This document shows, piece after piece, positions 1-26,445 of a stretch of DNA of 64,000 nt; position 1 is the stretch's first letter, and the number at the start of each line of letters is the position of its first letter. A program made the position numbers and the translations under genes. Source of the stretch: Elsinoe ampelina (lineage: Eukaryota). The notes beneath the pieces are model-generated. The model saw nothing but the letters and a program-made list of their open reading frames with translations. It searched no databases and had not been told where the DNA came from. Location of the stretch: the NCBI GenBank assembly GCA_010093995.1, contig ML992504.1:806001-870000 (forward strand), written 5' to 3'.

Positions 1-916
1 CCTTCGGGGGCTTCTTGGAGGGGCTAAACTTTGGAGTATCAGGCAGTCCGAGACCGAGGTTGGCGAAGCGGGCCGAGAGGGCATCGTCCATGGCCGTAAG
101 GTCAGCGGGGAGAGTAGGCAGGGCAGAAGGCGCGGAGGGGAGGTCGAGGGGGTCTTTGGCGGGGCTAGTGGAGGAGTCGTCTGGCTCCGAGGGTGTGATA
201 GGCTCGTCGTACTTCCCCTCGATCTCTAGCTCGGCGAGGACGCGCGCGATGTAGTCTTCTGCGTCGCGCGAGTCTTGGTCGTCTTGCCGGCCGTCGTCTT
301 CTTTCTCTTCGTCTTTGAGGCGGGCGTGGAAGTCGTCGAAGATGCCGTTGTTCGGGCCAGCGGGCTGCTCTGCGCCTGACGCGCTCTCTAGTCCTTCTTC
401 CCCTTGCTGCACCTGGTCTGCCTTATCCGCTACGCTCTCCCCTGGTTCTACCCTGCCATCTCCATGTAGCGCTTGCCAGTCCTCTGGGAGAGCTTCCTTT
501 GCTTCCCTCAACAGCCCCTCTACGTCCTTTGCTTCGTCCTTGCCTACGTCCCAGGTCGATTCTTCCCCGCCAAGCTCTTGTAGTAGCTCCTCCAAGGTGC
601 GGTCATCTTCTTCGTTATGTGGGGTGTTTTCATGAGTAGCGTCTGGGAGACGGATAGAGCGATTGCCAGCGGCAGGGGAAGAAGTCGCGGAGGCTGGGTT
701 TAATGCACGGAAGCGGGCGGCCAGATCATCTGAATTCGTGCCGTTGGATGCAGTCGACGGAGCTGTAGTGGAGAAGATGTCTGGCTGAGTGGGATCGGGT
801 GAGGGCGGAGCTTTGGATATTGATGCTGGAGGAGAGAGAGAACGGGCCGTCGAGAGGTTGACGGAACTTGGTTTCAGAGCATTGAGGCGAGCAAGAAGAT
901 CATCGTCTCTCGGCAT
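1..916 (-). CDS. Hypothetical protein, probably a fungal abscission/NoCut checkpoint regulator (ZFYVE19/ANCHR-like); 3' end runs off the window
   Basis: ATG at 916 opens MPRDDDLLARLNALKPS...DDLAARFRAL...EEDDRTLEELLQEL...LGLPDTPKFSPSKKPPK and appears open to the window edge, which is why it is missing from the ORF track. Family guessed from the repeated 'L(L/A)AR(L/F)xAL' motifs; the diagnostic C-terminal zinc finger is not in the window. Confidence 0.5.
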   Translation of the reverse strand, partial: MPRDDDLLARLNALKPSSVNLSTARSLSPPASISKAPPSPDPTQPDIFSTTAPSTASNGTNSDDLAARFRALNPASATSSPAAGNRSIRLPDATHENTPHNEEDDRTLEELLQELGGEESTWDVGKDEAKDVEGLLREAKEALPEDWQALHGDGRVEPGESVADKADQVQQGEEGLESASGAEQPAGPNNGIFDDFHARLKDEEKEDDGRQDDQDSRDAEDYIARVLAELEIEGKYDEPITPSEPDDSSTSPAKDPLDLPSAPSALPTLPADLTAMDDALSARFANLGLGLPDTPKFSPSKKPPK

Positions 917-16994: not shown

Positions 16995-17953
16995 TCACTG
17001 CTTGACCCAAGGTATCCCAAGCTTGTGCATCTCCACTGCCAATTGGAAGATGTAGTCAAGACTATACAAAGTTAGCACAGCAACACATTCTACCGAACCT
17101 CTGTTCTTGCCTTTCGCACTGCGTCTTCGCCTGAGCAACATCCTTGCCCCAAACATATCTGAAGACCATCAGTGCCTCCTCAACCATGACCCGTCTATAC
17201 AATACTCACATGCCGTGCCTCTTCACCAACACAGCATACGTATCAGGCCACTCCCTGATCGCCCCCTCGAGCGTATCCCTCAAGTCCTCCTCTCTCGCAG
17301 TGTTCTCGATGATCGGTATCCGTAGCGTATCATAGTACCCCAGATTACCAGCCTTCTCAGGCCCGTACCCTCGCGGGATACCCTTGATCTGCTCCAAGGT
17401 AGATATGGAGAAGACATTTGGCTCTGACGTCCGCTCGCAGAGGAGAGTCACCAGTACGGCCCATTGCGAGTGGGTGTGGATACAGCAGCCTGCGTTCCTC
17501 ATGGTGAAGGCGGCGAGGAAGAGGGGGGTGCATGCTGAGGGCTTGAGGTTCTGGTGGGAGTGAGATACAGGCACGGGGGTAGCAACGGATGGGAATGGAT
17601 GTTATCATAGAATAGAGCAGAGGGACGTACCACAGGGCGACGGAGGTAGTCGTTTGATTCGTAGTCCATGACAAACATATCCGTCGGTTTCATCAATTCC
17701 TTCTGCACGCCTGAAGGGGCGATGTATAGCTTGTCCTCATGACGGATAGATGTGCCGCCACCAGTGCCAGTGACCTGTCAGCTATGTCAGTTACTGCCGT
17801 ACCAACCTACTGTACAGATCGGCGCTGTCCTGGCGCCACGGGAAGACCTACCCAGCCAAGTGTATAGAACTTGCGGCAAAGTTCGCAAATCAAATTCGCA
17901 GGATGGTTTGGATCATGAGACGTGACTAGTGCTTCTGCATCACTCGCGGCCAT
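16995..17953 (-). CDS. MDE1: Methylthioribulose-1-phosphate dehydratase (methionine salvage), multi-exon
   Basis: [30 protein letters not shown]...APSGVQKE...SACTPLF...CIHTHS...LVKRHG|IYVWG...[11 protein letters not shown]. The exact stop is slightly uncertain because a GTGAGT overlaps the TGA. Confidence 0.93.
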
Positions 17954-18252
17954 TCTGCCAGCTCGAACAGGCTCACTAGCCTTTGTCTCTGAGGAGGATA
18001 AGGCCGGCTTTCAAGGTTTGCCAGATTTCAACCCACGTGGTGAGCAATCTTCGGTCAGTTCCTGACTTTCACTTTTACTGCTAAATCCAGGGAGCGAGTC
18101 AAGCTCTAGTACCTACCAAGGAACGAGATGGCGCAGATAAACGTACTGTTGGAATTGTATAACTAGGCAAGCCCTGATGGGCGAGTTCTTGACATTTGCT
18201 ACAACGCGAGCAAATCTTCCTTCGCCAACCACGGCTTCATTCTTGATGGAAA

Positions 18253-18260
18253 TTATATAA
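18253..18260 (+). promoter_or_regulatory. TATA element upstream of the tRNA-Ile gene
   Basis: TTATATAA about 30-35 nt upstream of the mature tRNA 5' end, the position of TATA elements at fungal Pol III genes. Confidence 0.55.
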
Positions 18261-18315
18261 TTTTAAGCTGGATAGGCAGCCAGAAATCGGTCGATTAGCT
18301 CAGTTGGTTAGAGCG

Positions 18316-18365
18316 GTTCGTTAAACCTACTTTCAGTTCGAAAGCGGGCACTAATGATTCTCCAG
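18316..18365 (+). other. Spliceosomal-type intron (50 nt) in tRNA-Ile between nt 26 and 27
   Basis: 5' GTTCGT, branch ACTAAT (18350-18355), 3' TTCTCCAG; precise removal joins the D-arm to the anticodon stem. Confidence 0.85.
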
Positions 18366-18376
18366 TGGTGCTAATA

Positions 18377-18400
18377 TGACATGTATTCGTCAAGATGTTA
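18377..18400 (+). other. Canonical tRNA intron (24 nt) at position 37/38
   Basis: Insertion one nt 3' of the AAT anticodon with no GT-AG ends; removal restores the 7-nt loop CTAATAA. Confidence 0.88.
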
Positions 18401-18418
18401 ACGCCAAGGTCGCGAGTT

Positions 18419-18467
18419 GTATGTAGCCTTCATCCTCGCCCCTACTGCAGTGTCTAACAAATTCCAG
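18419..18467 (+). other. Spliceosomal-type intron (49 nt) in the tRNA-Ile T-loop between nt 55 and 56
   Basis: 5' GTATGT, branch CTAAC (18454-18458), 3' TTCCAG; precise removal restores GTT|CGA. Confidence 0.9.
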
Positions 18468-18492
18468 CGACCCTCGTATTGACCACTTGAAA

Positions 18493-18498
18493 TTTTTT
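18493..18498 (+). terminator. Pol III-type oligo(T) terminator of tRNA-Ile (second T10 run at 18530-18539)
   Basis: TTTTTT beginning 8 nt after the discriminator base. Confidence 0.7.
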
Positions 18499-19061
18499 GA
18501 ATCCGTTTCCATTTGAGGTAGAAATTTCGTTTTTTTTTTCAGGTAGATACGGTCGGTAGTATGTGAGCGACAGATACCGGGGCTTCATTTTTGCTTCTTT
18601 CATGGCTGGGTGTCAATTCAAGACCTAGAAAGCATGTACTACGTATCTATACCGCAGAGAGAAGCATCTGGGACAAACAAATGGGTTTTTAATGGTCTTT
18701 TCTCATAGGTAAATAATCCTGATAATAGGACAACCGTCGGCAACTTGATGGGTCCAATACTATGAAACATATATCACGAGCAACACGATTTGCTACTCAA
18801 CGTCCTCAAGTCGTTTGTGACATATTTCCTACCGCATAGATTACAATTTTGTGCTCCCGCTCAAGTAGGCTCAGCGCCTACCAGTAAGAAAGCAATACAC
18901 CAGCCCCATTCATATCCCTTGTCATTTCATACAACTGCTCATGCCCTTCCCAGTCGACACTCTGTTTCCCATCACTTCCCGCCCGCTATGTACCCACCAG
19001 CCCGAGCACTGCTCTTGACCAGTCATCCTCCACCCTGTAGCCTCTTCCATGGACGCCACCC

Positions 19062-20989
19062 CTATGCCGCCACTGGCTCGGATGTAGCTGGCGCCTCAGT
19101 CTTCTCGGCCTCTCCATCAGCCTTTACCTCCTCAGCGGCTCCCTCCTTTGTCTCCTCGGGCTTCTCCGTCTTAGGCTCGACGACACTTGAGTCCACCATA
19201 GACACATCTGCTTCGTCTCCAGCGTCGTTACCAGGGTTCGTGGCTTCGACTGGCGCCTCAGCTGGCTCCTTCACTTCAGCCTTCTCCTCGGCTGCTGCCC
19301 CTTTCTCACCATTCTCTTTCGCAGGCTCGTCCAACTTCTTCTCGCCGTTTGTGGCAGGCTTGGCCTCGCTCTTGCTCTCCGCTGGTGCATTGAGTGCATC
19401 GGACCAGTGATCAAGCATCGCGGACGACCGCTTCTTGAAGTCGTACTTTTCGTCTTGTGGGATGTTGTCGAGACGGAGGATGTTCTTCAAGACCTTGTGG
19501 ATCTTGGTGTTGCGGATGATGGATCCTTCGAGGTTGGTCTGCTTCTCCAGCTCCCTGAAAAATTCGTCCATCTGAGGCATCTCGTCGTCCTTGGGTGGCG
19601 TGTCGTTGGAGAGGAAGCCCTTCTGAAGACGATGGCGGAGATAGAAGACTATCACTGTCAGCGCCTCTTCTCATGATGCAATCCTGATGTACTTACTAGC
19701 TTTCTCGCGGCGCTCCAACCTTACTTCTTCGGGCAGATCTTCCTCCTCGACCTTCTCTGCCTTCTTCTTGGGCTTGCTCTTCTTCGTCGACTCGGCCTTT
19801 GGCTCCTTCGTGCTCAACTTGACCTTGGGAGTCTTCTTCGGCTGAGACAAGTCAGTGGAACCGTCTGGATCACAGAGACGGGAATCATACCTTTGGTCCT
19901 TCACCCTCGCTCTCAGCCTCCTTCTTGCGCTTCTTGGTGGGCTTGTCCTCATCGACGTCCATGGCATCGTCATCTGCTACCTTGCTCTTTCGGCGCTCCT
20001 TCTCTGCTTTGCGCGCCTCCTTCTCCTCCTTCTCGGCCTGCTTGCGCTCAAACTCCTCGCGCTCGAGCTTCTCAATCTCCTTGACCTCTTCCTCGTGCTG
20101 GCGCAGAACGCTCTTGAAGTGGTCGAGATCGTGACCCTCTGAAGCGATTCGGTGGGCATCCTTGAGCGCGGGTTGCATCTTCTTCTCGCTGTTGAGGTTG
20201 ATTTCGCTAGGATCGAGCTTGGTAAGCGCCGTGTTGACCATCCAGGCACTGCACCGAATTAGTCAAGATTTGTGCGACATGCGTTCCTGTACCTACAATT
20301 CGTTGGTTGAGAAGAACATGACTGGGTATGTCCTGTCCTTTGCGTTCTTGCCGCCATCGAGGAAGTCCTCGCGGTAGGTACCATCGGGTCGTTTGGTGCT
20401 GACAGGGCGGCTGCCGAGTAGAGACTCTGGCAGCATCGACTCGTCGCAAACAATTGCTGGCCATGGCGGATGACCTTTCAGCCTCGCCCACACCAAATTG
20501 CCAGCGTCAAGATCAAGGTTCAAGTTGACCATAGACTTCTTCTTGTTGAGCTTCTTGCTCTTGTGTTCCGGAACACCGGTGGATGACTTCCTCTTTGAAT
20601 TCTTTCCCGCTGCTGGTGTGCTGTCGGCAGCTGCAGCTGCGGCTGCGACATCGACTTCTGCCTTGCCCTCGCCCTCAGGTGGGTTGACCTCTGTGGTGGC
20701 TTGCGGGCCGGCCTTGTCCACGTCATCGCTAGTCAATTTCGGCTCGCCATTGGTTTCCGCAGTCGCTGTATCGAATGTAAGTCCGAGTTCTGCTCCGACA
20801 ATCTTCAGAGGTAGCATACCAGAGGCATTGGCGCTTGGCTCAGAGGTTTCTTGCCGGGTCTCGGTTGAGTTTGCGGTGGCTGGAGGAGCCTCGGAACACT
20901 CAGTATACCACAAAGCAATTTCAGCCTATCTCATGACTCACCGTAGTCTCCTCGGCTGGCGCCGCTGGAGTGCTGGAAACGTCTGCCAT
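19062..20989 (-). CDS. PWWP-domain chromatin protein (Pdp3/Ioc4-like), multi-exon
   Basis: LVWARLKGHPPWPAIVCDESMLP...YPVMFFSTNE PWWP domain; C-terminal FYLRHRLQKGFL...TKIHKVLKNIL helical domain; first exon 20942-20989 ends at a GTGAGT donor. Confidence 0.85.
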
Positions 20990-22929
20990 CACGGAAACGT
21001 CACGTCGAGGCGATTGACACGCTTATCTGACACGCGTCGAACGTGTGAGGTGAGGCCTTGTGATGATGCGATGAGCTCGGTGATGAAAGGAAGCTCTAGT
21101 CGAGCTGAAGACGATGAAGGTAAAGCGCAAGGAGGTGTAAGCGTGTCGGGCACGTGTTGGTGGTGCGCGTTGCGAAAGGTGGAGAGGATGGAGAAAGAGA
21201 AAACGAGCGAAGCCAACGAAATACCTACACTCGGAAAGCTCGCACGGACCAACTTCCAAAGTGTCCAGCACAGCACGCGACTGGTACTTTCCACGTCTCT
21301 CATGGCCTAGAAAAATGCCGGGAAAGTTCTGATTGACCTTCAATGAAGCCTCTTCTTACCTCATTTGTGGTTTTGAGTACCCAGATCCCGTTGTATGGAT
21401 TGTTATGGCTGGCGTGACCAAAAACCGCCGAGAAAGCCCCCTCCTCACTTGCAACATCCCAAATCGGTTTTGCGCCGGGATCCGCGGCGTCTGACGTGGG
21501 GCAGCTACAGCTTCCCAACAGTGCGTGCTCGATCGTTCGCCAGACACTGGACTTTCTATACCGATGCAGCTGAGGCGTTCCAGAGCATGACAGAGCTGAT
21601 TCGTAGCAATTCGGTGCTTGTAACCCGACCGATGCAGTGATTGTGACACAAAGTCCCATGTATATCGCCGATCTGGGCTTTGCAGGGTGCACAGGTCAAC
21701 TTTTCATCCCGCGTCACATTGGCTGGGCGAATTCCGAGGCTGCGTAGAATTTGCGGATTGACCGTAGGCTGTTGTCCCATAGTCGAATGCTCTCCAGAGG
21801 CATCGCTGACGTCGCCGCCATGTGTTTGGTTTCGACGGAGCTAATCGAAGTCTTCGAGACAGATTCGTGATGCTTCTGAAAGTTCCGCTTTGAGTGGATA
21901 GAATGCTTTCGTGACCTTGCCTATGCAGTGTGTGCTCAATCGTTGCTCATGTGGTACCGCGCACAAGATCCAGCATCTCCATTTCCAGTGTCATGCAATA
22001 TCAAACCACCGGGCTCCTTTATAGAGGCAAGATCGTGCTTGTAACCTCGAGTGGTGCGTTCGAAATGGCCAGTGAGAGACAAGTACGGATATCTGAATGA
22101 AATGCCCCTCGGTACGACCGCTGGTAGGTATCGTGTCAACCAAGCGAGCAATGGGATCATGTACTATCCACTAAAGTGATCAGGAAAGATCGGGAAATGC
22201 ATGTTGATGATTAGGAGAAAAGAAGAAAGGTTTTTACAGTGAAGATCTGGCTCCCTGTGCCGCTTCACCTGACTCACCGTGCGGTTCTGGCAACTAGTGA
22301 TCACTAATTTGCAGTAGTTCTATGTCATGGTCAATGCAGAGATGTCCGTTGCTGCTATCCTGTATCGTCTCAGGCCATGCTAGGGAGCCGCAGTGCGTGT
22401 AGCGGGCGTGGGCGGACGGGCAATATATTCCCAGCTCTTGACGACCACGGCGGTCCTGATAGCGTATCACTGATATTAGGTGACTGTCAAGCGTGTCTCG
22501 TTTTGCATGGACCTCCCGGATGTGCTGTCGCATTGAGTGCAGGAGGTTTAGGCAGGGGCTGAGCGAGGGTTGTCTCGCGGGGGCTGTCATGGGCTGAGGG
22601 ATTCCGAGAAGGTCCTCTCCTTGATTTCCTTTTCGAGTGTCTGGCCTGCCATCTTTGAATGTCGCTTCGCACTTCGATCTCGTCGTTGTCGGAAGAGTAC
22701 GCTGGATGGTCGGTCATATCGCACCAAATCAGCGGATGTGGTGTAGTGGTCTGTGCACGATATCACGTGCCGAACCATGCTCTTCTGAGTTACACAAGGT
22801 CAAGTTCACATAATAAGTGGAATTGGACAGTTGACACTGAAGGTATTTATACATTCCTGACATTGATGGCTTGCTGCAGCTTATTCTTCTCCACATATCA
22901 TTGTATCCTGTGGACTGTCATGCCTGATT

Positions 22930-25884
22930 TTAGAATCCCCGACTCTTCGGCATCACCGGCTTCCTGACAGCCCCTGTCGACGTAACCTTCTTCACCGCCG
23001 ACGACACTGGCTTCCTGGCTGCAACCTCCTTCTCCTCCTCCTGTCGTTTCCTCTGCTTCTCTCGGTCACGATCTTCTGCCATCCTCGCCTCGATTTCCAG
23101 CCTCTTGTTGAACTCGGTTTCAGTGGCACGCTTGTTCTTCAGTGAGTATCCTTTCTCCTTGACGCTATAGAATACTCCACCAAGATCAGCGAGCCAGTGT
23201 GGATCCACTGCTGTGACGCACGACATGTATTCCTTCGAGGTGAGGATGAGCTCGTGGTAGACGACGTAGTCCGGAGGATCGCCTGAGTTGAAGAGAGCAC
23301 TGGTAGGGTGAAGCTGGACCGAGACGGAGGTACGCAGGTTGACGTACTCGCCCAGGCCTTTCCTCTTTGCAGCTTGGTGGTAGTATCCAGAGCACACGCA
23401 CTGCCGAATGATTTCTGTGTCATAGCCGGCGCTGACCATTTCCATCTTGAGAGAAGCCATAATGTCTTTGATCTGGTTGCGGATCTCATCTGCTCGACGT
23501 AAAGCCTTCGGATGCAGGAAGTGCCGGACACACCAGTTGTCTTTTTTGCCGTTTGCTCGCCACTGTTGGTACACATTCAGAAGCGTCAGATGGTCGCTGG
23601 AGGGGTCAAAAAACTTCTCACGTGCAGCGTCAGCTTCTTCCATGCGCTCCTTTGGCCTGTAGAACACCGATGGGACGCTCAGCATAGAAACAATTGTCAG
23701 CATCTCCTCGCTACACCCATACTCTACCGAAGTAAGGATGAGCTTGGCCAGAGACGGATCCATGGGAAAGTTTGTCATCTTGCTCCCCACATCTGTAAGC
23801 TCCCCGAGATTGTCCAGAGCACCAAGAGCCCACAGATCGAACAAAGAGGTCGTGATGGTATCCTGAGGTGGTGGATCCATAAAGTCAAAATCCAGAAGGT
23901 CTTTCACTCCCAGAGATTTCAAGAGAAGCACAGTATTTGCAAGGTTGGTTCGCTGAATCTCAGGAATGGTCTGGATATAAAGCTCGTCCCTAAATGCTCT
24001 CTCGGTGTACAGGTGAAATGCTCTGCCAGGTCCGGTACGACCAGCCCGTCCAGCTCTTTGAGAAGCATTGGCCTGACTGATTGGTGTGATCTGCAATGTG
24101 TCCATTCCCATCTTTGGGTTGTAGACTTTGAGTTTGCTGAAACCAGAATCAACGACGTACATGATGCCGTCCACAGTGAGTGATGTCTCCGCGATATTGG
24201 TCGCGACAATGACTTTCCTTACACCTGGGGCTGCTCGGTCGAAAATCTTCGCCTGTAAATCGGCTGGCATTTGACTGTAGATAGGCAGAATAGACAACTT
24301 CGGAGGGTCGTTCAGTAGCCTCAGGCGCTCCGCGACGAGTTCGCAGGTAACCTCAATATCTTCTTGACCGGTCATGAAGACAAGGATATCTCCTTGACCT
24401 TGCGAGACATGGATTGCCAGGACTTGACGAACGGCAGCATCGACATAATCTTCAGAAGGCGTCTTCGAATATTGAATGTCGACAGGAAAGGTCCGACCTG
24501 GAATGAAGAACTCAGGAGCTCCACCGTAGAATCGAGAGAACCGTTCAGCGTTCATTGTAGCTGATGTGACAATGAGCTTAAGGTCTCGTCGACGCGCGAG
24601 GACTTTCTTGATCAGACCCATGAGGACGTCTGTATTGAGTGCTCTTTCGTGAGCTTCGTCCATAATGATGCAAGAGTATTTGTCCAGATCTGGCTCCGTA
24701 AGAGACTCACGAAGTAACACACCATCAGTCATATACTTGATGACGGTGTCTTTGCTCGTGCAATCTTCGAAACGGATGGAGTATCCAACTAGATCGCCAA
24801 GCTTGACCTCCATCTCCTCTGCCACACGCTTTGCAACACTCATCGCAGCCACTCGACGAGGTTGTGTGCAACCGATCAAGCCAGACTTGCCGTACCCGTC
24901 CTCGTACAAGAATTGTGTGAGCTGTGTTGTCTTCCCAGATCCTGTTTGCCCAACGACAATAATCACCTGATTGTCCCGAATGACTCGAAGCAGGTCTTCA
25001 CGGACAGCGAAAGCAGGGAGATACTCTCTTTGTTCTCTCAGAGACTTACTTCGACTGAAGTCGCTCTGACCTTCATCCCTTTTCATGTGTTCAGCGAATT
25101 TACTGCCACTTTGATTCTCTTCTCCATTTGTCGGAGCAGCACTGTCAGTGTCGTCCTCCTTGACGCCCATGAGATTACCCAAAGCCGTCCCTGCTACATT
25201 AGTAGCCTCTTGTGCCTGCTTCTGCCTCTCCTTCTGCTGTCGGCGCTCTTTGACCACCTTGCTTCCTCTCCTGCTGAAAACTGCCATATCGCTCTGCGGA
25301 TCTTTGACAGCCGGAACAGGATCCAGCTGTTTCGTGAAGATCGTCTTGCCATCGAGAAAGGGCGGGCGTAGATCGTGAACCAGCAAATGTACCCGGACTT
25401 CATCATCGTCGTCGAAACCGTCGAGATCTTCACGTCGTTGCGCCACACCAGACGTGAGCATGCGATTTGTCTCCCAGGCGTCATTCTCCCGCTGTCGCTG
25501 CATAGCTCGTGGATTTGTCCGCGCTCGCGCCGCCAACTTCCTCTCAAGCATAGCCGTCTCTTGCCTCTGCGTCTCCCACGTTGACTCCTCCGCACCGAAG
25601 GGATTGTGGTAGTCGTCTCCCAACGTATTGCCGTTCTCATCCCCAGTGTACCAGTCTCGATCTATGGCTGTCGCATCGCCTCCTTCGACACCGGCTTCAG
25701 GCCCCTCGAACCTGTCATGAGGTGACTCAGCCCGTCCTTGTCGCCGACGTGGTGCGGAAGAGCCATTCCGATCATCATTGCGCCTATCTCGAAATGATGG
25801 TCTCTGGAAATTAGGCCGGATCGCGTAGTCATCCCCACCGTCGTGATCGAGCTTGCGTCGCTTTGGGCTATATTCGCGAGCCAT
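22930..25884 (-). CDS. PRP16: Pre-mRNA splicing DEAH-box RNA helicase Prp16
   Basis: [41 protein letters not shown], and the Prp16-specific N-terminal [11 protein letters not shown]...[15 protein letters not shown]. First ATG at 25884. Confidence 0.95.
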
Positions 25885-26445
25885 TTTCAGATGTCGATAG
25901 GGCGCGGACACTCATTCGAGGTGGAGGCCACTGTCGGCGTCTCTGTTTGCGTATAGTGGAGCAAAGATCACTAGCAGAATAAAGTTTCTCCAAAATTTTG
26001 GATGCTCGGAGCTCATTACCGCTGGTCCTCAGCCTGCAGCAACCAAAAGTTTTCGGGGTCAACACTTGATCACTCGATTTCCCAATGCAGAGAGGCTACA
26101 GTGATAATCAGCCAGCATTCACATCACATCTGACCTGTTCTGGACTGTCCCTTGAAGGTTATCGAGGTCGTCCATGAGATCGTGGCTGGACGTGGCTGTG
26201 TTTTCTTTTGATGTGGCTGATGCAGGCTATGACATCGCTCATTCGCCAGCCAAAACAGGGAAGTGCGGTTCCTTGGCGCAGATCAGACACCGCGCCTGCC
26301 GCTGACGACATTGTCGCCCTTGGCAGTCCTGTTATATTTGACAAGGGGCACCTCACTTTTGGTCACTTTCAACACTCGAGCAACTCATCTAATCACCTAC
26401 AACATCAAATTTCCACCCTACATCTACACTACACCAACCAACGAC

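Follow-up and report, generated by a model that had tools for sequence, protein, structure and literature searches.

A tRNA-Ile(AAT) gene split into four exons by three introns is present at positions 18289-18485 (plus strand) of the 64-kb stretch of DNA analysed here, which we call the window. Two of these introns have the length and the signals of short spliceosomal introns, and the third is a canonical tRNA intron. Comparison with related loci indicates that, in other fungal DNA, both this layout and the spliced tRNA have been kept, whereas the introns have diverged in sequence. The interpretation that we consider on balance probable is that, in a group of filamentous fungi, the genes for the main isoleucine tRNA, tRNA-Ile(AAU), carry two true spliceosomal introns together with an endonuclease intron, that their small RNA, probably a polymerase III product, would have to pass through both splicing systems, and that this would be the first such case.

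RESULTS

Structure of the split gene

All parts of the gene lie on the plus strand. Exon 1 (18289-18315) corresponds to nucleotides 1-26 of the mature tRNA and comprises the 5' strand of the acceptor stem, the complete D arm with the A box, and G26. Exon 2 (18366-18376; nucleotides 27-37) provides the 5' strand of the anticodon stem, C32, U33, the AAT anticodon and A37, while exon 3 (18401-18418; nucleotides 38-55) provides the 3' strand of that stem, the variable loop, the 5' strand of the T stem, T54 and T55. Exon 4 (18468-18485; nucleotides 56-73) contains the remainder of the T loop and the 3' strands of the T and acceptor stems, and ends at A73, CCA being absent from the encoded sequence. 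When the four exons were joined by their coordinates, ARAGORN called a tRNA-Ile(aat) of 74 nt with every stem paired; the acceptor, anticodon and T stems contain one G-U pair apiece. The positions expected of a cloverleaf are all occupied as they should be (U8, A14, G18 and G19, U33, T54, T55 and C56, A58, C61), and the anticodon loop of 7 nt carries AAT. The exon and intron coordinates and the motifs had been proposed in an earlier sequence-only reading of this DNA; all were correct on re-reading of the sequence, and its claim that the four pieces make up a complete tRNA-Ile(AAT) is borne out by the ARAGORN call. The observation of a split tRNA-Ile(AAT) gene is confirmed.

Intron 1 (18316-18365; 50 nt), of the spliceosomal type, separates nucleotides 26 and 27. 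It starts with GTTCGT, has ACTAAT at 18350-18355, 11 nt from its 3' end, and terminates in CAG. Intron 3 (18419-18467; 49 nt), of the same type, separates nucleotides 55 and 56 inside the T loop, where it splits the B box after T55; it starts with GTATGT, has TCTAAC at 18453-18458, 10 nt from its 3' end, and also terminates in CAG. Removal from GT to AG restores the cloverleaf, as the sequence-only reading had it, with one refinement: the boundary of insert 1 could also lie one base further left with an equal product, and GT..AG is obtained there solely with the placement originally proposed. For insert 3, one placement is possible.

Intron 2 (18377-18400; 24 nt) is a canonical tRNA intron between nucleotides 37 and 38. 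The 98-nt precursor lacking introns 1 and 3 has, as its minimum-free-energy structure, a cloverleaf with an extended anticodon-intron helix; position, length and precursor fold thus all agree with the previous description of this insert as a normal 37/38 intron.

That standard tRNA finders would miss a gene of this kind had been anticipated, and this was indeed the case. On the unspliced DNA, ARAGORN reported no gene in the 64-kb window either with or without its intron mode, and Rfam gave no match at the gathering score in the window and none at E<=10 in the region 18150-18650; the Ile(aat) call appeared once the gene was spliced.

Splice signals and chance background

Contigs from four sequencing runs, which were taken as RNA because they skip the introns of the neighbouring genes, verify nine mRNA introns, 48-80 nt in length, which belong to the two genes on either side of the tRNA. 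Seven of the nine measure 48-54 nt; CTRAY occurs in six of them, in five of these at 9-10 nt from the 3' end. Inserts 1 and 3 agree with these nine introns in length and signals, as had been stated from the sequence. The GTTCGT 5' site of intron 1 is unusual, T at +3 being found in none of the nine.

Signals of this kind are rare by chance. Among 511,604 segments of 48-51 nt, taken from both strands of the 64-kb window, only 10 combined GTNNGT, CTRAY at 8-15 nt from the end and terminal YAG, and this number includes both inserts. The probability that an arbitrary insert carries such splice signals is about 2e-5 per insert. Furthermore, we removed in silico 1,665 single GT..CTRAY..AG candidates and 3,157 neighbouring pairs of them from the 64-kb window, and a tRNA was called from one of these 4,822 constructs alone, that in which 18316-18365 and 18419-18467 had been taken out together. 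The split-gene pattern is far beyond chance.

Introner-like elements, which multiply as families, leave many near-identical copies in introns of unrelated genes. A blastn-short search of the 64-kb window for further copies of introns 1 and 3 gave none, the best other matches measuring 8-16 nt.

Related loci and a second copy

A metagenome scan returned two loci, L001 and L002, both of them whole genes with the same three-intron layout. The comparison covers 922 bases of the L001 contig and 1,272 bases of the L002 contig, and the evidence as a whole derives from three genes and part of a fourth. After splicing in silico, L002 yields a clean Ile(aat) in ARAGORN; its precursor lacking introns 1 and 3 likewise folds as a standard intron-containing pre-tRNA. 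Exon 3 is identical to that of the window at 18 of 18 positions in both L002 and L001, partly by construction, 14 of the 18 having been set in the pattern used for the search.

Between the window gene and L002, the exons are identical at 71 of 76 positions and the introns of the spliceosomal type at 63 of 99 (Fisher p = 1.9e-6); identity is 10/24 in intron 2 and 34/60 in the 60 nt upstream. Decay of the exons as fast as that of the introns had been named beforehand as a sign that would speak against the proposal; L002 displays the opposite. One acceptor pair, 6-67, is A-T in the window and C-G in L002, a change that involves two substitutions 190 nt apart in the gene. The position of intron 3, 55/56, is common to the three genes. 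Intron 1 occupies position 26/27 in the window gene but is one base further on, at 27/28, in both L002 and L001, and splicing leaves the same sequence across its site. The excess of exon over intron identity, the compensatory pair and the one-base shift show, at the level of the sequences compared, that purifying selection acts on the spliced product.

All six introns of the spliceosomal type in the three genes are 48-50 nt long, start with GTNNGT, contain CTAAY at 10-12 nt from the end and finish with AG, which is CAG in five of them. Within one gene, introns 1 and 3 resemble each other in their 3' parts, with a common word of 14 nt in L001; the longest common word in 36 control pairs of mRNA introns was at most 8 nt. 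We also scored the junctions of introns 1 and 3 for the bulge-helix-bulge motif that the tRNA endonuclease would require, in which a 4-bp helix, with outer helices on either side, separates two 3-nt bulges that contain the cut sites; all 16 offsets of the cut position in the bulge were tried. No such motif was found at these introns in the three genes; the best score was 6 out of 10, with the central 4-bp helix incomplete. On the same scale, 1,159 of 3,000 random 50-mers scored 6 or more and mRNA introns scored 3-7.

The 37/38 intron measures 24 nt in the window, 13 nt in L002 and 12 nt in L001, and the loop letters CTAATA preceding it are identical in the three genes. The intron mode of ARAGORN placed this intron inconsistently, giving Asn, Leu and His across the three genes, and for this reason was not used for identity; a single anticodon is common to all three only under the 37/38 rule.

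L001 is damaged. Its D arm is rearranged with an 8-nt duplication, its TATA box is absent and its intron 1 ends in AAG; thus, split copies of this kind can decay.

In the four runs, the sole contig in the region 18009-18800 is one of low depth from run X2, which matches 18397-18486. It runs into different sequence on both sides and therefore represents another locus in which exon 3, intron 3 and exon 4 recur; by elimination among likeness classes, we infer that this locus is at least 99% alike to the window copy. The paralogous contig has its own T6 run at the start of the trailer. It keeps introns 2 and 3 and extends past the terminator. As it may be either DNA carry-over or precursor, no conclusion on expression or splicing is drawn from it, nor from the lack of other contigs in this region. 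With L001, L002 and this second copy in the organism, the 'hidden class' of split tRNA genes suspected by the sequence-only reading exists at least for tRNA-Ile(AAT).

A pattern made of exon 1 and the start of intron 1 matched nine prokaryote loci and two loci on viral contigs, none with the fungal layout. ARAGORN placed a tRNA over the match in five of these 11 loci; all 11 are bacterial or phage tRNAs, or fragments of them, whose anticodon stem chances to start with GTNNGT. The pattern spanning exon 3, intron 3 and exon 4 gave no locus in viral contigs.

Promoter and terminator signals

A TATATAA box is located at 18254-18260 (plus strand), that is at -35 to -29 from mature nucleotide 1, and may serve as a TBP/TFIIIB site. 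L002 has TATATAT at exactly -35, matching the position of the TATA box in the window. For comparison, TATAWAW falls at -40 to -25 from 128 of 127,850 arbitrary window positions. The TATA box at -35 is also compatible with polymerase II.

Downstream of the gene, a T6 run at 18493-18498 (plus strand), 8 nt after nucleotide 73, is a candidate RNA polymerase III terminator. T6 or T7 starts 7-8 nt past nucleotide 73 in all three genes, the background of T6 within 20 nt being 141 of 127,950 arbitrary window positions (0.0011). T runs inside the introns were considered as well: they do not exceed T3 in the nine introns of the three tRNA genes, and equally in the nine mRNA introns, so that this test of polymerase III transcription is non-discriminating.

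Exon 1 holds an intact A box. A contiguous B box is absent, being split by intron 3, and no conserved replacement for it was found within the three loci when these were scored against the B-box consensus. A B-box-like word, AGTTCGAAAGC, with two mismatches to that consensus, lies at 18335-18345 in intron 1 of the window gene. We considered a B box in intron 1 as a general mechanism, by comparison with U6 of Schizosaccharomyces pombe, and rejected it, since AGTTCGAAAGC has no counterpart in L002 or L001. The break made in the B box by the T-loop intron, together with the lack of a conserved substitute in the three loci, counts against the explanation favoured below, as do the unusual 5' site of intron 1 and the decay seen in L001.

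DISCUSSION

The presence of three introns of two unrelated kinds in what would be one primary transcript of about 210 nt suggests a maturation pathway in which the window tRNA probably needs two splicing machineries, the spliceosome and the tRNA endonuclease. We propose that, as the B box is split, polymerase III would initiate aided by the TATA box at -35 and by the A box, which is intact, and would be stopped at the T6 run. Introns 1 and 3 would then be taken out by the spliceosome in the nucleus, as happens with the polymerase III-made U6 RNA of fission yeast. The T arm and the tRNA elbow could form only after their removal, and for that reason end trimming, export and recognition by the endonuclease would come afterwards. 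The tRNA splicing endonuclease, measuring from the folded body, would cut out intron 2, and tRNA ligase would join the halves. Finally, A34 would be deaminated to inosine, as it is in other tRNA-Ile(AAU). All claims of the sequence-only reading that sequence could decide were upheld; both the spliceosomal removal of inserts 1 and 3 and the order in which the spliceosome precedes the endonuclease are inferred from the gene sequences. One point that counts against spliceosomal removal is that polymerase III transcripts are generally regarded as poor substrates of the spliceosome. According to a preprint, polymerase III-transcribed Alu cannot be monitored by spliceosome-dependent reporters (preprint 10.64898/2026.09.26.754642).

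Whichever polymerase makes the RNA, we consider it likely that the locus is a live tRNA-Ile(AAU) gene whose inserts 1 and 3 are removed by the spliceosome. If it is live, we would expect the maker to be polymerase III, with a fair degree of confidence. A live gene with the same splicing route but transcribed by RNA polymerase II takes, in our estimate, a minor yet appreciable share of all outcomes. Transcription would then begin some 30 nt downstream of the TATA box. The tRNA gene might in that case form a divergent pair with the MDE1-like gene on the opposite strand, which has its mRNA 5' end at a distance of about 280 nt. The product would be spliced co-transcriptionally like any short polymerase II RNA and subsequently trimmed by RNase P and RNase Z. 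Such a route would accommodate the split B box, for which the three loci have no conserved replacement, and the TATA box at -35, which suits polymerase II too. The contigs of the MDE1-like mRNA reach 18008 on the minus strand, which would place two starts back to back, and polymerase II transcripts are, as described in PMC12530127, the normal place of spliceosomal introns. On the other hand, the T6 or T7 run 7-8 nt past the tRNA end is found in three of three genes and again in the trailer of the paralog, far above its background; this is a signature of polymerase III termination and has no known role in transcription by polymerase II. The intact A box also argues for polymerase III. Moreover, a TATA element at about -30 is by no means foreign to this enzyme, which uses it in tRNA genes of fission yeast and plants according to PMC7279448; such an element was likewise suggested in Cyanidioschyzon merolae, whose tRNA genes are disrupted (PMC3728597).

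Another explanation, which we regard as unlikely, would be that the locus is a dead or dying copy, a former tRNA-Ile gene that has received intron-like insertions while uninterrupted copies elsewhere supply tRNA-Ile(AAU). Destruction of the B box would fit such a fate, and the state of L001 demonstrates that split copies do decay. However, the much higher conservation of the exons than of the introns and the upstream flank would not be expected for a relic, nor would a compensatory change across 190 nt. The six introns keep full splice signals at the right spacing, and the spliced product is preserved through a one-base shift of intron 1. The TATA box and the terminator of the window gene are still in place, and neither this gene nor L002 has any of the damage that marks loss of constraint in L001. 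It is very improbable that introns 1 and 3 are ectopic introns with incidental GT..AG ends, excised by the tRNA endonuclease, or by some nuclease other than the spliceosome, and sealed by a ligase, after the model of the tRNA genes with several introns in the red alga C. merolae: neither junction has a bulge-helix-bulge in the three genes, the best score being no higher than in random sequence or mRNA introns, what is conserved across lineages is GTNNGT, CTAAY near the 3' end and AG rather than any pairing, and arbitrary inserts would each have to acquire spliceosomal signals against the low chance given above.

With spliceosomal removal of introns 1 and 3 as the favoured explanation, the gene may be compared with several known systems. 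Introns of the mRNA type occur in genes for U6, U2, U5 and U1 snRNA and for rRNA (PMC5855946), and the U6 intron of S. pombe and other fungi has been described (Tani & Ohshima 1989, 1991; Frendewey et al. 1990; via PMC5855946). Like S. pombe U6, the window gene encodes a small, structured, non-coding RNA and is interrupted by short intron sequence with GT..AG ends and a branch box. U6 is also a polymerase III gene, with a TATA box upstream and a T run as terminator, polymerase III being a proposal in the case presented here. Unlike in U6, the host is a tRNA, a type missing from the list in the available text of PMC5855946, and a single RNA of 74 nt combines two such introns with an intron of the endonuclease type. 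The S. pombe U6 intron carries the B box (Frendewey et al. 1990, via PMC5855946), whereas here a B-box-like word is found solely in intron 1 of the window gene and is not conserved. The usual account of intron gain, by reverse splicing into RNAs of the catalytic centre, is not directly applicable, because a tRNA is no component of the spliceosome.

In C. merolae, tRNA-Ile(UAU) has introns at 12/13, 37/38 and 53/54 (PMC3728597, PMC9602550). There, too, introns disrupt the promoter of A and B boxes, the signals proposed are a TATA-like element upstream and a stretch of T downstream, and multi-intron tRNA genes are missed by standard finders. The algal introns, however, are described as forming bulge-helix-bulge structures cut by the tRNA endonuclease, in place of which we find spliceosomal signals; the positions also differ, being 26/27 or 27/28 and 55/56 here, and the fungal host has mRNA introns of the ordinary short kind. 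Ascomycete rDNA offers another parallel (Bhattacharya et al. 2000, via PMC5855946), as its spliceosomal introns are short, conserved in position within a fungal group and inserted in a stable-RNA gene that is not transcribed by polymerase II; the host in that case is an rRNA made by polymerase I, with a single splicing system per molecule. Ectopic tRNA introns, most of them unable to form a bulge-helix-bulge, have been reported in the nucleomorph of Guillardia theta (PMC3728597). They resemble introns 1 and 3 in being eukaryotic tRNA introns outside 37/38 that mostly lack this motif, but belong to the reduced relic nucleus of an alga and, in the available text of that paper, are not called GT..AG introns with branch boxes.

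Full-text searches with thin coverage of subscription journals, in which an older report may exist, found no tRNA gene described as having spliceosomal introns; this agrees with the sequence-only reading, which knew of none. In current accounts, such as PMC12530127, spliceosomal and tRNA introns form unrelated classes, each tied to RNAs of its own. If a conserved tRNA gene depended on both machineries, this separation would no longer hold. If our interpretation is true, tRNA genes would be shown here for the first time to carry spliceosomal introns. The case would also be the second natural one of the spliceosome acting on a probable polymerase III transcript, and the first with two introns. 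With the likeness of the 3' parts of introns 1 and 3 and the one-base shift of intron 1, the split gene would offer a compact system for studying intron gain in RNAs other than those of the spliceosome.

There are practical consequences for the description of fungal genomes as well. tRNA genes that appear 'missing' in fungal annotations may be concealed by introns of the mRNA type, and the tRNA gene sets of such fungi would, if the proposal is true, be under-counted by every standard finder. Removal of candidate introns followed by a tRNA scan is a simple procedure that recovers such split genes. For the fungi themselves, the proposed pathway would mean that reading of the AUU and AUC codons, and with it the supply of a major tRNA, depends on the spliceosome.

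Results

The gene occupies 18289-18485 on the plus strand and is flanked by two minus-strand genes. The upstream neighbour is an MDE1-type class II aldolase gene (Pfam Aldolase_II), with mRNA contigs that extend to 18008 or beyond; the downstream one encodes a PWWP-domain protein (Pfam PWWP), and its mRNA contigs stop around 18801-18818. When its four pieces (18289-18315, 18366-18376, 18401-18418 and 18468-18485) were joined by coordinates with a script, ARAGORN called the 74-nt product as tRNA-Ile(aat) with every stem paired, and the pieces stand as the sequence-only reading had given them. By standard tRNA numbering, insert 1 (18316-18365, 50 nt) separates G26 from nucleotide 27, insert 2 (18377-18400, 24 nt) follows A37 and precedes A38, and insert 3 (18419-18467, 49 nt) falls between T55 and C56. 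Only one placement is possible for insert 3; sliding insert 1 one base to the left leaves the product identical, and GT..AG ends are obtained only with the placement first proposed. ARAGORN found no tRNA in the unspliced window, with intron mode on or off, and Rfam returned no match in the window at gathering score and none at E<=10 on 18150-18650. The spliced form being called Ile(aat), the expectation that standard finders would miss this gene was borne out.

As a reference for inserts 1 and 3, contigs of four public runs were placed on 17000-21000. They skipped nine introns in the two neighbour genes (49, 51, 80, 77, 48, 49, 48, 54 and 52 nt); the four runs therefore act like RNA data, which verifies the skipped segments as mRNA introns. 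At the 5' end these introns read GTGAGT, GTACGT, GTAGGT, GTAAGT, GTATGA, GTAGGT, GTATGC, GTGAGT and one GCAAGA, and CTRAY is found in six of the nine, at 9-10 nt from the 3' end in five of those six. Insert 1 carries GTTCGT, ACTAAT 11 nt before its end and CAG, and insert 3 GTATGT, TCTAAC 10 nt before its end and CAG, so that their claimed resemblance to the neighbours' mRNA introns holds in both length and signals. Among the 511,604 segments 48-51 nt long on the two strands of the whole window, only 10 combine GTNNGT, CTRAY at 8-15 nt and YAG, inserts 1 and 3 counted in. We also deleted 1,665 candidate GT..CTRAY..AG segments in silico one at a time, and neighbouring candidates together in 3,157 pairs, and submitted each resulting construct to ARAGORN; a tRNA emerged from one of the 4,822, that lacking the pair 18316-18365 and 18419-18467. 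Given this result and the rarity of the signals, the observation is genuine and does not stem from selective reading.

Several other features of the region were recorded. The single GC..AG intron (GCAAGA...TAG) among the RNA-verified ones belongs to the MDE1-like gene (17062-17110, minus strand). Over 19950-20014, about 65 nt of the PWWP gene, the runs X2, X4 and X6 each contribute one contig of <90% likeness whose flanks differ on both sides, probably from a similar charged low-complexity coding stretch of another gene. A frame of 993 codons without interruption, at 22930-25911 on the minus strand, codes for a helicase of the DEAH-box family, which takes in spliceosomal helicases, and has HA2 and OB-fold domains; it has no intron over 3 kb, where its neighbours have one per few hundred bases, and is otherwise not unusual.

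A scan of metagenome contigs for exon 3, GTNNGT, a gap of 30-60, AG and the start of exon 4 returned two loci, L001 (gene at 144..334) and L002 (773..589, minus strand); viral contigs gave no match to this pattern. Both loci hold much beyond what was searched for: a match to exon 1, exon 2 with the same anticodon loop, an intron 1 of 48-49 nt with GTAAGT and ACTAAC that ends in YAG or, in L001, AAG, a 37/38 intron (13 or 12 nt in L002 and L001), an intron 3 with ACTAAC 11 nt before its end, and an exon 4 that pairs through its end with exon 1. After in-silico splicing, L002 is called as a clean Ile(aat). The flanks of L001 are orthologous to those of L002 (36/40 over the 40 nt downstream, and a common upstream block), and its gene looks like a fresh pseudogene, with a rearranged D stem that includes an 8-nt duplication, the AAG end of intron 1, a missing TATA-box segment and a precursor that misfolds. 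Exons 2-4 of L001 are still identical to those of L002. One low-depth contig of run X2 covers 18397-18486 and departs from the window sequence on either side; judged from this contig, exon 3, intron 3 and exon 4 recur at a second locus in the window's organism, and by elimination from likeness classes we infer that contig and window are at least 99% alike over the common part. The hidden class that had been predicted thus has, for tRNA-Ile(AAT), further members in L001, L002 and this second locus, the comparative sample being three genes and part of a fourth.

A pattern of exon 1 and the start of intron 1 matched bacterial and viral loci with tRNA-like oddities of their own. Bacteroidales MAGs (L009, 601-715; L010, 601-720; both minus strand), and likewise L006, carry tandem repeats of about 90-95 nt, each opening with 25 or so bases from the 5' end of a tRNA (acceptor strand and D arm) before turning into a non-tRNA hairpin; the repeats drew no call from ARAGORN, which reported just a tRNA-Asn some 60 nt off. 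A Crocinitomicaceae MAG (L005, ~530-633, minus strand) and a viral contig (L013, ~500-633, minus strand) each hold a tRNA-like gene with a normal 5' part and T arm and a long insert in the anticodon region, neither called by ARAGORN.

Discussion

The B box of the gene is split by intron 3, and in the three loci searched a B-box-like word occurs only at 18335-18345, in intron 1 of the window gene, with two mismatches to the consensus; it is not conserved in L002 or L001. A TATAWAW box stands at exactly -35 in the window gene and L002 (background at -40..-25, 128/127,850), all three genes have a run of T6 or T7 that begins 7-8 nt past nucleotide 73 (background 141/127,950), and the paralogous X2 contig has its own T6 run in the trailer. 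Pol III is described as using TATA boxes at about -30 in tRNA genes of fission yeast and plants (passage in PMC7279448), and for the disrupted, TFIIIC-independent tRNA genes of Cyanidioschyzon merolae, which the window gene resembles in its upstream TATA box and downstream T run, a TATA-like element and a T stretch have been proposed (section of PMC3728597). Because of the conserved box and T run, together with these parallels, we consider that the gene, if live, is probably transcribed by Pol III; alternatively, Pol II might transcribe it divergently from the MDE1-like promoter.

The gene could also be a decaying relic, but the pattern of selection speaks against this. Between the window gene and L002, 71/76 aligned exon positions are identical, against 63/99 in the two spliceosomal-type introns (Fisher p = 1.9e-6), 10/24 in intron 2 and 34/60 in the upstream 60 nt. 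Just two exon positions, 6 and 67, show a base substitution; they lie ~190 nt apart in the gene and are partners in the acceptor stem, where A-T in the window is replaced by C-G in L002. The window gene has intron 1 at 26/27, and L002 and L001 have it at 27/28; both splice sites have moved one base, T27 coming from the downstream exon in one arrangement and from the upstream exon in the other, and the spliced sequence is unchanged. Either intron 1 slid by one base, or a second insertion took place at the adjacent bond. All six spliceosomal-type introns of the three genes are 48-50 nt long, start with GTNNGT, have CTAAY 10-12 nt before the end and finish in AG, and in the three-way alignment the intron columns that do not vary are concentrated at the splice signals. 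L001 exemplifies real decay, in contrast to the window gene and L002. The comparative evidence supports the interpretation of the sequence-only reading, whose observation is confirmed.

In C. merolae, introns of the bulge-helix-bulge type interrupt tRNA-Ile(UAU) at 12/13, 37/38 and 53/54 (passages in PMC9602550 and PMC3728597), whereas introns 1 and 3 of the window gene, L002 and L001 lack such a motif. With 16 offsets tried per junction, these introns scored 6/10 in all three genes and never showed a complete 4-bp central helix; since 1,159 of 3,000 random 50-mers reached at least 6 (the nine mRNA introns scored 3-7), this level is no better than random and gives no support to endonuclease substrates of the C. 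merolae kind. Once introns 1 and 3 are taken out, the window and L002 precursors are predicted to adopt the fold of an ordinary intron-containing pre-tRNA with an anticodon-intron helix, in keeping with the usual endonuclease pathway for intron 2. For introns 1 and 3, the best-supported explanation would thus be removal by the spliceosome. The spliceosome would act first, because the T arm and elbow cannot form until intron 3 is removed, to be followed by end maturation and export, and then by the endonuclease. In yeasts, the tRNA endonuclease acts in the cytoplasm. Its final position in this order would follow from the way the eukaryotic enzyme measures from the folded body (described in part of PMC3728597). 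On sequence grounds, it is fairly likely that this is a live tRNA-Ile(AAU) gene, which would depend on the spliceosome for two introns and on the tRNA endonuclease for one.

As to the origin of introns 1 and 3, no further copy of either was found within the 64-kb window. Their 3' ends, from branch point to 3' end, are alike within and between genes: L001 introns 1 and 3 have a 14-nt word in common, and window intron 3 and L002 intron 1 a 10-nt word; the longest common word among 36 mRNA-intron pairs is 8 nt. These likenesses hint that one intron gave rise to the other, or that the two have a common source.

We found no report of spliceosomal introns in tRNA genes in the full-text literature, in which subscription journals are poorly covered, so that absence of reports is not proof. 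A 2018 review places such introns, in the passage concerned, in U6, U2, U5 and U1 snRNA and rRNA genes (PMC5855946), and spliceosomal and tRNA introns are treated as unrelated classes in a section of a 2025 paper (PMC12530127). As a new class, tRNA genes would thus join the hosts of an intron type that is itself known.
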